From assembly GCF_013122565.1 (NCBI RefSeq), contig NZ_CP053258.1: a stretch of 64,000 nt of DNA, one strand, 5' to 3'. The translations under genes were made by a program, and so were the position numbers. Within the stretch, counting starts at the first letter, position 1, and every line of letters starts with the position of its first letter. The stretch is from Escherichia coli. Its GTDB lineage: Bacteria > Pseudomonadota > Gammaproteobacteria > Enterobacterales > Enterobacteriaceae. This document shows positions 37,535 through 38,815 of the stretch, piece by piece. Under the pieces are notes generated by a model. That model saw nothing but the letters and a program-made list of their open reading frames with translations, searched no databases and was not told where the DNA came from.

Positions 37535-38815
37535 CTATAGCTGTTTATTCCAGAGATGCTTGAAAATATCTAATGTGGAGACAACATTGGCAGGCGACAT
37601 TCGGTTTAATGAGGATAGAAAGGGATGAGACTCCAGGAAGTTGATAAAACGAGTCGCGCTTGCTAACGTCGAATACCGCAATTCATTTGCTTTCTTGTTT
37701 CCTGTAAGGTTACAAACAGCCATTGAATAATCACGGGCGGAAAATGCACGCCAAACATTATTTCTCACGCCACCACTCAAAAACAACCGCGGCGGCGTAT
37801 CATAATGAGTCGTTTTCTCGCCGCGTTCTTTCACAAAGGAAATATGGCACCGGCCTTGATGAATATGCTGTAAATTAGCCATTAGACAACCGCCTAATAT
37901 AAAGCACTCGTGATCAAGGTAGTGTTGAATATTTATAGAATATGCTTCAGTCAGTACTCTAACCAGTTCAAAATGGCGATACGCCGGAAGAACCGGTTTC
38001 ACCAGCATCCCCGGATCGTTTTGATGTAATATCGCCCGACCATAATCAATATCAAATAAAGTATCACGTCGCATAGTAAGTAACTCCTTGCGTTGTACGT
38101 GATGCGCCAGTGTACCTGGAGACAAACGCTCTTCATAACTTGATGCATATTGATAATGCGACTCTACCGCTGATGGAGAATAATTTGTTGAAATAGCGAC
38201 GACTCTACCGCTTTGTTCTTCTGCGGTAACAAGGCTATAAAGATAGTTATTACTACCGTTAAACTTTACGCGAAAAGCGCGGGTAGATAGAGAAATATCA
38301 GAAGCAGAAGAGTATTGGTAACTTTCTTTATAGTTTACTTCCCGGGCTAGTTTCATCAATTCACGGTTAAGCCCTGTGCTATTAAGAAGTAATAATTTAC
38401 GGATATCAGCAAGTGAAGCGCCTTGCTCAATCATCAATGCTAAATGTGTTCTTCGCGGCGTTGTATTTACATGATCCAGAGTTATAAAAGTTCTGGAACA
38501 ATGATGACAATACATTCTCCTCTGCCCCTGAGCTGAATAGCCATACTTTTTCATAGATGTGCTTCCGCAAGCTGGACATTGTGAAACCAACCCTCGCCAT
38601 GAATGATTAACACGATTACGATAAATATTAAGAGATCGTTCAGATATCACAGGAAACAAGTACCCGCATTCCCGACATAAAATATTTTTGCCTTGTACAA
38701 TATAATCCTGACTATTCAACAACCCCAAGTTTCTACATCCTGGTGTTTTGCAACAATCAACATTTACGTTGGTAAACATATCCACTTCCTGCGAATATCC
38801 GGATATTATCGTCAT
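37535..38815 (-). CDS. Hypothetical protein with tandem N-terminal zinc-ribbon motifs (transposase-like zinc ribbon)
   Basis: 426-aa ORF with ATG start; two Cys clusters (CCKTPGC...CRECGY and CPACGS...YCHHCSRTF); the second resembles the IS1 InsA / IS1595-type transposase zinc ribbon (recalled). Confidence 0.65.
   Translation of the reverse strand: MTIISGYSQEVDMFTNVNVDCCKTPGCRNLGLLNSQDYIVQGKNILCRECGYLFPVISERSLNIYRNRVNHSWRGLVSQCPACGSTSMKKYGYSAQGQRRMYCHHCSRTFITLDHVNTTPRRTHLALMIEQGASLADIRKLLLLNSTGLNRELMKLAREVNYKESYQYSSASDISLSTRAFRVKFNGSNNYLYSLVTAEEQSGRVVAISTNYSPSAVESHYQYASSYEERLSPGTLAHHVQRKELLTMRRDTLFDIDYGRAILHQNDPGMLVKPVLPAYRHFELVRVLTEAYSINIQHYLDHECFILGGCLMANLQHIHQGRCHISFVKERGEKTTHYDTPPRLFLSGGVRNNVWRAFSARDYSMAVCNLTGNKKANELRYSTLASATRFINFLESHPFLSSLNRMSPANVVSTLDIFKHLWNKQL

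Follow-up and report, generated by a model that had tools for sequence, protein, structure and literature searches.

InsA, encoded by the insertion sequence (IS) IS1, binds specific DNA, namely the IS1 ends, and represses transcription. Conversion of transposases into transcription factors of the host is a recognised process that is well documented in eukaryotes, where FHY3 and FAR1, which are of Mutator-like origin, are experimentally proven examples; in bacteria, to our knowledge, DDE transposases turned regulators are hardly documented. CytR and DeoR are the classical regulators of Escherichia coli tsx, nupC, deo, udp and cdd. Eukaryotic families of transposase-derived transcription factors have been listed in a review (PMC10027918). 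The present analysis concerns a gene, hereafter gene X, on the minus strand of a 64,000-nucleotide stretch of E. coli DNA (contig NZ_CP053258.1), referred to as the window. Sequence comparison and a predicted structure make it very probable that gene X is a domesticated, immobile and selected derivative of a transposase, and they favour, by a smaller measure, the full proposal that this exapted transposase acts as a local transcription regulator.

The product of gene X shares with InsA a homologous zinc ribbon and helix-turn-helix (HTH), and the activity of InsA is the one proposed for it. Unlike InsA, X has an additional N-terminal zinc ribbon and a 260-residue C-terminal domain without IS1 catalytic similarity (hhalign, 0.4 %), and it lies outside any IS as a single-copy, syntenic gene. 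With the transposases of ISCth4 (6xg8; IS256/Mutator) and Tn5 (1mm8) it shares a ribonuclease H (RNase H)-like core and an insertion domain at a sequence identity of only 7-9 %, whereas no transposase hidden Markov model (HMM) covers its core, the two catalytic Asp positions are not conserved and there are no transposon ends. The route proposed for X is that of FHY3/FAR1, in which a zinc DNA-binding module and a transposase core are kept, mobility is lost and gene regulation is taken up; X differs from these proteins in being bacterial and in that its regulatory role is a proposed one. The proposed targets of the X family (a tsx-like channel gene, nupC and deoCABD), along with a CRP-dependent promoter with an upstream block, resemble the CytR/CRP regulon, although X is transposase-derived and not of the LacI or DeoR type, has no known effector, and in its enterobacterial branch is tied to a sulfatase cassette and not to deo genes.

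The initial annotation of this locus had described a 426-residue protein at 37535-38815, co-oriented with a neighbouring sulfatase gene. The open reading frame (ORF) is present on the minus strand and yields 426 residues if read from its first ATG, and the ORF list and the NCBI Prokaryotic Genome Annotation Pipeline (PGAP) place both genes on this strand; the length, however, needs correction. PGAP starts gene X of a 99 %-identical genome at Met13 of the 426-residue ORF, and Met13 is the start in all 55 homologue clusters. Furthermore, an 81 %-identical allele found in B2 strains retains the ATG at 38779 together with the ribosome-binding site AGGAAG/AGGGAG before it, but not the surroundings of the ATG at 38815. 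For these reasons the product probably has 414 residues and the first ATG is probably not the true start; all residue numbers given here follow the 414-residue form. Amongst the genomes used for comparison, NZ_LT883142.1 is 99.3-99.4 % identical to the region and IAI39 98.5 %. In public records X is named 'cytoplasmic protein', 'hypothetical protein' or 'IS1 family transposase', or bears a domain-level label. The features recognised in and directly before the gene are as follows.

37535..38779, minus strand: coding sequence of gene X, probably 414 amino acids plus stop (ORF, PGAP, homologue starts, conservation of ATG and ribosome-binding site, selection between alleles)
38780..38815, minus strand: 12-codon upstream extension, probably untranslated (no counterpart in homologues, different in the B2 allele, overlapping a promoter-like site)
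38651..38755, minus strand: zinc ribbon 1, residues 9-43, C10/C15/C35/C38 (Cys at least 90 % conserved in the 37-sequence alignment; modelled beta-hairpins at 26-43)
38480..38584, minus strand: zinc ribbon 2 of InsA / IS1-IS1595 type, residues 66-100, C68/C71/C91/C94 (NF050000, Pfam, hhalign)
38321..38458, minus strand: HTH region, residues 108-153, homologous to the HTH of IS1 InsA
37538..38308, minus strand: predicted RNase H-like (DDE-transposase-fold) domain with beta-rich insertion, residues 158-414 (predicted structure; canonical Asp pair not conserved)

The two N-terminal Cys clusters that had been noticed at the outset are real. Both are conserved across an alignment of 37 family sequences, which spans relatives down to ~20 % identity, and AlphaFold models each as a beta-hairpin zinc ribbon, the fold on which the initial annotation depended. 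The suggestion that both are of transposase type holds for ribbon 2; no named family could be matched to ribbon 1. Ribbon 2 scored 37.8 bits against NCBIfam NF050000, the N-terminal zinc-binding domain of IS1/IS1595 (curated cut-off 28), and Pfam Zn_ribbon_InsA was detected in 7 of the 37 family members; Pfam Zn_ribbon_IS1595 reached an E-value of only 0.08 on X. Using hhalign, residues 64-145 of X were aligned with residues 4-88 of IS1 InsAB' at a probability of 95.7 %, an alignment that spans all of InsA, ribbon and HTH included. The N-terminal arrangement of the IS1 family, an InsA-type zinc ribbon followed by an HTH, is thus found in X, and homology to this ribbon-HTH unit indicates a sequence-specific DNA-binding domain.

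Searched by sequence, the remaining ~300 residues were not obviously of DDE type, as had been noted initially. Pfam gave no match to the C-terminal domain in X or in any of the 37 family members, and in X and distant members the matches of Pfam, NCBIfam, PHROGs and PADLOC were confined to the N-terminal zinc/InsA modules. The NCBIfam transposase models stayed far under their cut-offs on X and aligned to its N-terminus only. Comparison of the C-terminal domain with the IS1 alignment or catalytic domain by hhalign returned the 0.4 % mentioned above, from a poor profile in which the InsAB' relatives are almost all at least 78 % identical. A profile search of the PDB by sequence yielded only spurious C2H2 zinc-finger and HTH matches. 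A by-eye match of C-terminal motifs to IS1/IS1595 catalytic motifs was dropped in view of this hhalign value and of the model described below, where the motif 'LFDIDYG' precedes β4.

The same domain appears in another light when judged by its predicted fold. AlphaFold run on 28 close orthologues alone gave an unusable model (predicted local distance difference test, pLDDT, 52), but with distant members added the model reached a pLDDT of 91.4 and a predicted template modelling (pTM) score of 0.91. The order of elements in its C-terminal half is the canonical RNase H-like β1-β2-β3-α1-β4-α2-β5-α, with the following boundaries in the AlphaFold2 model.

Residues 161-173: β1
Residues 178-187: β2
Residues 193-198: β3
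Residues 224-237: α1
Residues 258-260: β4
Residues 263-280: α2
Residues 283-288: β5
Residues 292-307: helices after β5
Residues 311-357: beta-rich insertion
Residues 364-413: C-terminal helices

Structural matches of this model include retroviral integrases, Mos1, Hermes, piggyBac, MuA and IstA along with the PIWI domains of Argonautes. A Foldseek search of the PDB agrees weakly, with PIWI domains ranked first and ISCth4 recovered at a probability of 1.00. On the evidence of the model, the C-terminal domain has the transposase-type RNase H-like fold of the DDE transposase/retroviral integrase superfamily, and the initial impression of this part of the protein is corrected at the level of fold.

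DDE enzymes have three hallmark acids: an Asp within β1 and another shortly behind β4, both invariant, and a third, Glu or Asp, on the helix that follows β5. In the 37-sequence alignment no conserved acid occurs at positions 158-176 or 254-266: position 166, in the middle of β1, is T in 29 sequences, S in seven and K in one, and β4 is followed by K, R, E or Q and then by Pro262, which is invariant in 37/37. The only conserved acid of the canonical positions is E291, directly after β5 (E in 33 sequences, D in four). As read from the alignment, the canonical Asp pair is lost family-wide and the DDE residues are not retained. Since both aspartates are gone, X would be without canonical DNA cleavage or joining. 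Residues that are invariant or nearly so in the family are R238, Y246, P262, H269, F270, H286, H290, E291, W343 and N411.

The distribution and evolution of the gene were then considered. Exactly one copy of X is present in each of 1279 out of 5426 complete E. coli genomes (24 %), at the same chromosomal locus and never on plasmids, and a local HMM scan of the window identified X as the sole family member there. Full-length orthologues of 50-96 % identity occur in Escherichia, Salmonella, Klebsiella, Citrobacter and Kluyvera. E. coli holds two intact alleles, one in ~230 genomes at 95-99 % identity to the window and the other in 1049 genomes at ~81 % (B2, for example ATCC 25922), which differ by 19 % in DNA and contain no internal stops. 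Between them the ratio of nonsynonymous to synonymous divergence (dN/dS) of X is 0.093 at a synonymous divergence (dS) of 1.05, and its amino-acid identity is 84 % against 96-99 % for its neighbours, whose dN/dS values are 0.028 (sulfatase), 0.037 (channel) and 0.018 (nhaA). Single copy, fixed synteny, intact alleles and low dN/dS together identify X as a selected host gene. Terminal inverted repeats flanking X, which the initial annotation had not seen, were not found beyond chance in a search of 37000-39300 either; the sole perfect repeat there is a local 13-bp hairpin upstream. Matches by tblastn in plasmid and phage collections proved to be misfiled chromosomal DNA.

Two readings as a piece of mobile DNA must be weighed against domestication. 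One takes X for the transposase of an active or recently active IS of IS1, IS1595 or IS256 type, in keeping with an N-terminus like the zinc-binding and HTH modules of IS1/IS1595/IS1249, with the transposase-like fold, and with database records that call homologues 'IS1 family transposase'. Full-length homology to an active IS was nevertheless not found, as X falls far under every curated transposase cut-off: NF033558 (IS1 transposase) scores 31.6 bits against a cut-off of 100 and covers model positions 1-86 only, the IS1249 model scores 20.9 bits against 300 and the IS256 Zn-variant 12.5 against 150, and the IS1595 transposase models do not match X. Genuine IS1 proteins have PF03811, PF03400 and PF12759, whereas PF03400 (DDE_Tnp_IS1) is absent from all 37 family members. 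A single copy at one locus in 1279 E. coli genomes, identical synteny across genera, the missing inverted repeats and the missing Asp in β1 and after β4 all argue in the same direction, so that this reading is largely refuted and we give it almost no credence. Equally improbable is a decaying, functionless IS remnant marking the arrival of the sulfatase island, which the initial annotation had offered as an option. The position of X at the edge of a variable region found in 24 % of E. coli genomes would suit such a remnant, as would its faster evolution relative to its neighbours; yet X shows a low dN/dS with dS saturated, lacks internal stops and has its full length in all genera sampled, distant relatives retain the same architecture, and it occupies the same place in the dnaJ-nhaA cassette of other Enterobacteriaceae, which points to an ancestral state and not to an arrival. 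The other option of the initial annotation, a domesticated transposase-derived DNA-binding regulator, fared better in its first half, for which the InsA-like module, a fold without the Asp pair, single copy, synteny and purifying selection all speak; for the regulator half, the domains and the gene neighbourhood are what we reason from.

A profile of the C-terminal domain recovered only 72 relatives from 1.84 billion representative proteins, and the full-length ones (380-478 residues) have the architecture of X. AlphaFold DB adds members from Vibrio, Photobacterium, Enterovibrio, Proteus, Serratia and Atlantibacter. Outside the family the same database contains proteins of 570-630 residues annotated as insertion-element proteins (among them E8WS89 and E8WJC5), which may be the mobile ancestors. 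Gene neighbourhoods fall into three classes, namely the sulfatase cassette, nucleoside catabolism and uptake, and a UshA-like 5'-nucleotidase; the relatives beside deoD/nupC/deo or UshA-like genes are distant (20-30 % identity). The sulfatase cassette context was seen in at least seven lineages. In two single-locus contexts a family member is divergent from nupC-PNP and from nupC-deoCABD, respectively. A marine genome scan with the profile of a 5-sequence subgroup identified 16 loci in Agarivorans, Aliagarivorans, Motilimonas, Psychromonas, Celerinatantimonas, Gynuella and Alginatibacterium; deoD lies within a few kb on the opposite strand at 16/16, most also have nupC and deoCAB, and the Motilimonas locus has a Tsx-like gene immediately downstream as well. 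Where a genome carries two members, these are paralogues of 33-35 % identity and not IS copies.

A UshA-like 5'-nucleotidase gene stands beside a family member, mostly divergently, in six contexts (four metagenomic or genomic, with Salmonella and Citrobacter). In Salmonella and Citrobacter this involves a second enterobacterial paralogue (~23 % identical to X, 374-391 residues) between metL and metF, located by tblastn at 5986-7110 and 6001-7176 of the two retrieved loci and divergent from a gene for a 'bifunctional UDP-sugar hydrolase/5'-nucleotidase'. At several loci a TatD-family DNase gene adjoins the family member. Across distant genomes, therefore, the family keeps consistent neighbours, as a local regulator is expected to, and repeated divergent pairing is the usual signature of such a regulator. 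The common theme is scavenging at the level of the envelope, with a channel in the outer membrane, a hydrolase in the periplasm and a nucleoside transporter in the inner membrane.

In the window, the order of genes on the minus strand is nhaR and nhaA (36117-37283), X, a sulfatase-family gene, a Tsx/OmpK-family channel gene, hokC/sokC, dnaJ and dnaK. The two cassette genes that precede X in the direction of transcription are the following.

40422..41183, minus strand: Tsx/OmpK-family outer-membrane channel, first gene of the cassette (PGAP 'OmpK'; Pfam Channel_Tsx in orthologous loci)
38909..40402, minus strand: periplasmic sulfatase-family gene with formylglycine motif SSPSR in E. coli (PGAP 'sulfatase family protein'; motif comparison)

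The sulfatase product matched the NCBIfam arylsulfatase and choline-sulfatase models below cut-off. Salmonella, Klebsiella and two metagenome lineages have, between dnaJ and nhaA, a cassette in which X comes last, after the genes for a Tsx-like channel, for a sulfatase and for an anaerobic sulfatase maturase; in Salmonella the channel gene is on the strand opposite to the other three. Since the position is the same in all of these, the cassette looks ancestral at dnaJ-nhaA and lost from most E. coli, not newly arrived. In the other genera a gap of 20-30 bp separates X from the maturase gene upstream of it, and the genes look like a single operon. In E. coli the maturase is lost and X has been kept under selection. 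The same cassette of four genes is found elsewhere on the chromosome with a relative of 33 % identity, and a relative of 28 % identity and a sulfatase maturase gene are transcribed convergently.

The channel and sulfatase genes of the window are 19 bp apart and presumably form one operon. On alignment of seven channel-gene promoters, including that of a distant cassette and the rearranged Salmonella locus, three conserved elements emerged from otherwise unalignable DNA. They are listed here with two further features upstream of X.

41341..41366, minus strand: upstream block at ~-90, consensus AAAAACAACATTTTCTGACAC, conserved in 7/7 promoters; candidate operator for X
41295..41310, minus strand: CRP-like site TGCGA-N6-TCACG, ~41 bp before the point where transcription of the channel gene is inferred to start, conserved in 7/7 promoters
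41269-41274, minus strand: -10 box TATACT of the channel gene, conserved in the seven aligned promoters
38831..38861, minus strand: hairpin (14-bp stem, then TTCTTTTCTTT) with U-run in the gap that separates X from the sulfatase gene; probably an intrinsic terminator or an attenuator
38794..38822, minus strand: weak sigma-70-like promoter candidate for X, TTGACA-17-GATATT (consensus scan 10/12)

The known CRP consensus is TGTGA-N6-TCACA, and read against it the family form TGNGA-N6-TCAC(N) would be a CRP site. The -90 block occurs once in the window and is our candidate operator for X. Between the two E. coli alleles the hairpin stem differs by one T-A to C-G and one A-U to G-U change, which speaks for a conserved RNA structure, most simply an intrinsic terminator or attenuator. 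The sigma-70-like candidate for X is not conserved in the B2 allele, and the scan found fewer such sites in the region than in shuffled sequence.

Considering domains and gene neighbourhood together, we regard X on balance as a transcription regulator of the adjacent operon. According to this proposal, the two zinc ribbons and the InsA-like HTH would be the retained DNA-binding module of an IS1-type transposase, while the RNase H-like core, kept without its two DDE aspartates, would no longer cut or join DNA in the canonical way. No longer mobile, the gene is inherited vertically at the end of a cassette of channel, sulfatase, (maturase) and X. Its product would attach through the ribbon-HTH module to an operator in the promoter of the channel and sulfatase genes, for which the conserved block at ~-90, upstream of the CRP-dependent promoter, is the best candidate, and the former catalytic domain may serve in oligomerisation and possibly in sensing a small molecule through the conserved cluster H269/H286/H290/E291. 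Elsewhere in the family the same task might be performed for the scavenging genes deoD, nupC, deoCAB, tsx and ushA-like. What the analysis shows is domain homology, fold, the lack of conserved catalytic acids, immobility, selection and gene neighbourhood; that X binds the promoters in question, in which direction it would regulate them and whether it has a ligand are matters of inference. The widest form of the proposal is more tentative, its chances falling a little short of even: X and ~70 relative clusters would constitute an undescribed gammaproteobacterial family of DDE-transposase-derived transcription factors, with the dead core as a ligand-sensing or oligomerisation domain (His/His/His/Glu), which would control tsx, nupC, deo, ushA-like genes and the enterobacterial porin-sulfatase cassette.

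The main live rival to the regulator reading, less likely in our judgement, is that X is not a transcription factor and that its RNase H-like domain has some other nucleic-acid or nucleotide activity tied to nucleotide scavenging, for instance that of a nuclease or of a protein that binds RNA, built on a non-canonical site of His/Glu or Asp, or that of a post-transcriptional regulator. The most conserved residues indeed sit in the C-terminal domain (R238, P262, H269, F270, H286, H290, E291, W343), PIWI domains match its structure strongly, all the neighbouring genes have to do with nucleotides or nucleosides, and the TatD-family DNase gene is adjacent at several loci. We know, however, of no enzyme with an RNase H fold that is active in the absence of the acidic pair, the ribbon-HTH is homologous to InsA, a site-specific DNA-binding repressor, and divergent pairing with the target gene is how local regulators are usually laid out. 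A role as an accessory factor for maturation, folding or export of the sulfatase is very unlikely: the short distance to the maturase gene in most genera, apparently within one operon, would fit it, but E. coli has lost the maturase and X is still under selection, most of the wider family has no sulfatase nearby, and zinc ribbons with an HTH indicate nucleic-acid binding.

Several observations also weigh against the view of X as a transposase-derived regulator. In the Foldseek comparison with the PDB, Argonaute PIWI domains stand at least level with transposases, so the transposase origin of the fold leans also on the InsA-like N-terminus. The catalytic positions were mapped by the order of secondary-structure elements and by alignment columns, and not by superposed three-dimensional coordinates; in the enterobacterial clade taken by itself, D161, D243/D245 and E291 do not vary, and this clade could conceivably have a non-canonical acidic site. 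No motif common to the channel promoter and the region upstream of X itself was found, and exact-dyad enumeration and MAFFT alignment of the marine intergenic regions revealed no common operator, only CRP-like half-sites. In E. coli a terminator-like hairpin parts X from the sulfatase gene, and co-expression there is therefore uncertain.

Within the searchable library, a search of the literature for the gene, STM0037, domesticated transposase regulators and a sulfatase with dnaJ-nhaA returned nothing on X or its family. The acid-inducible sulfatase of the literature, considered as the sulfatase of the cassette, was rejected, being AslA at another locus. X would be an unusual bacterial case of domestication of the DDE type with a coherent physiological theme, and it provides a concrete and testable candidate that E. 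coli, Salmonella and Klebsiella carry and that has relatives among marine genera, Vibrio included. If the proposal is true, it would add a regulator of nucleoside and nucleotide scavenging outside the CytR/DeoR paradigm, explain the control of an uncharacterised porin-sulfatase cassette in gut Enterobacteriaceae, correct a recurrent misannotation as 'IS1 family transposase' that inflates IS counts, and offer a bacterial counterpart of the transposase-derived transcription factors of FHY3/FAR1 type.

Some further observations concern X and its relatives. The misfiled plasmid and phage records comprise 'plasmids' of 0.8-4.9 Mb, records of 80-425 kb with metF-katG-metL-metB and Salmonella whole-genome-shotgun contigs; read literally, they would give the false impression that plasmids or phages carry the family. 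Salmonella entries in AlphaFold DB are often short (Typhi 327, Paratyphi C 247, arizonae 258 and Rubislaw 208 residues), which suggests truncation or pseudogenisation in some serovars, or fragmentary gene calls. An E. coli copy of the metL-metF paralogue is indicated by AlphaFold DB entry A0A444R321 and by one of the matches in the plasmid collection. Members of marine/Vibrio type, of 450-480 residues, share a conserved tail ...YNYCxxDxxGxTPAxRxGL... (alignment columns 501-560) that the clade of X does not have and that seems to resemble the C-terminal 'YN...TP' tails of some DDE transposases.

Others concern the cassette. In E. coli it exists as two deeply divergent haplotypes (36117-41183 compared with ATCC 25922), with dS from 0.32 in nhaA to 1.05 in X, which we take to be far above typical E. 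coli core divergence; this suggests ancient allelic lineages or recombinational replacement from another Escherichia. The active-site motif of the sulfatase is of Cys type (LCSPSR) in every maturase-bearing lineage and of Ser type (LSSPSR) in both maturase-less E. coli alleles. Either another maturase acts on the E. coli Ser-type enzyme, whose gene is all the same under strong purifying selection (the dN/dS of 0.028 given above), or its chemistry has changed. The Salmonella cassette has an arylsulfate sulfotransferase gene on either side (Arylsulfotran_N/Arylsulfotrans; 404-2122 and 9376-11091 of that locus) and is adjoined by a UshA-like nucleotidase gene, and a sulfotransferase fragment follows the X relative in the distant 33 %-identical cassette. 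These sulfotransferase and nucleotidase neighbours hint at a larger locus of sulfur-ester metabolism.

Around the cassette, Rfam places the sok antitoxin RNA of hokC/mokC/sokC at 41646-41798 (plus strand), between cassette and dnaJ, and the small RNA tpke11 at 43183-43260 (minus strand), between dnaK and dnaJ. K-12 has an IS186 in this place as well, and the cassette is absent. Farther away, at 28690-35114, the window has long ORFs of 473 and then 177, 227, 816 and 319 amino acids, whereas for the same region the closest annotated genome lists espX1 as frameshifted and the fimbrial usher and fimbrial genes as partial or frameshifted; the strain of the window may carry intact espX1 and fimbrial versions.

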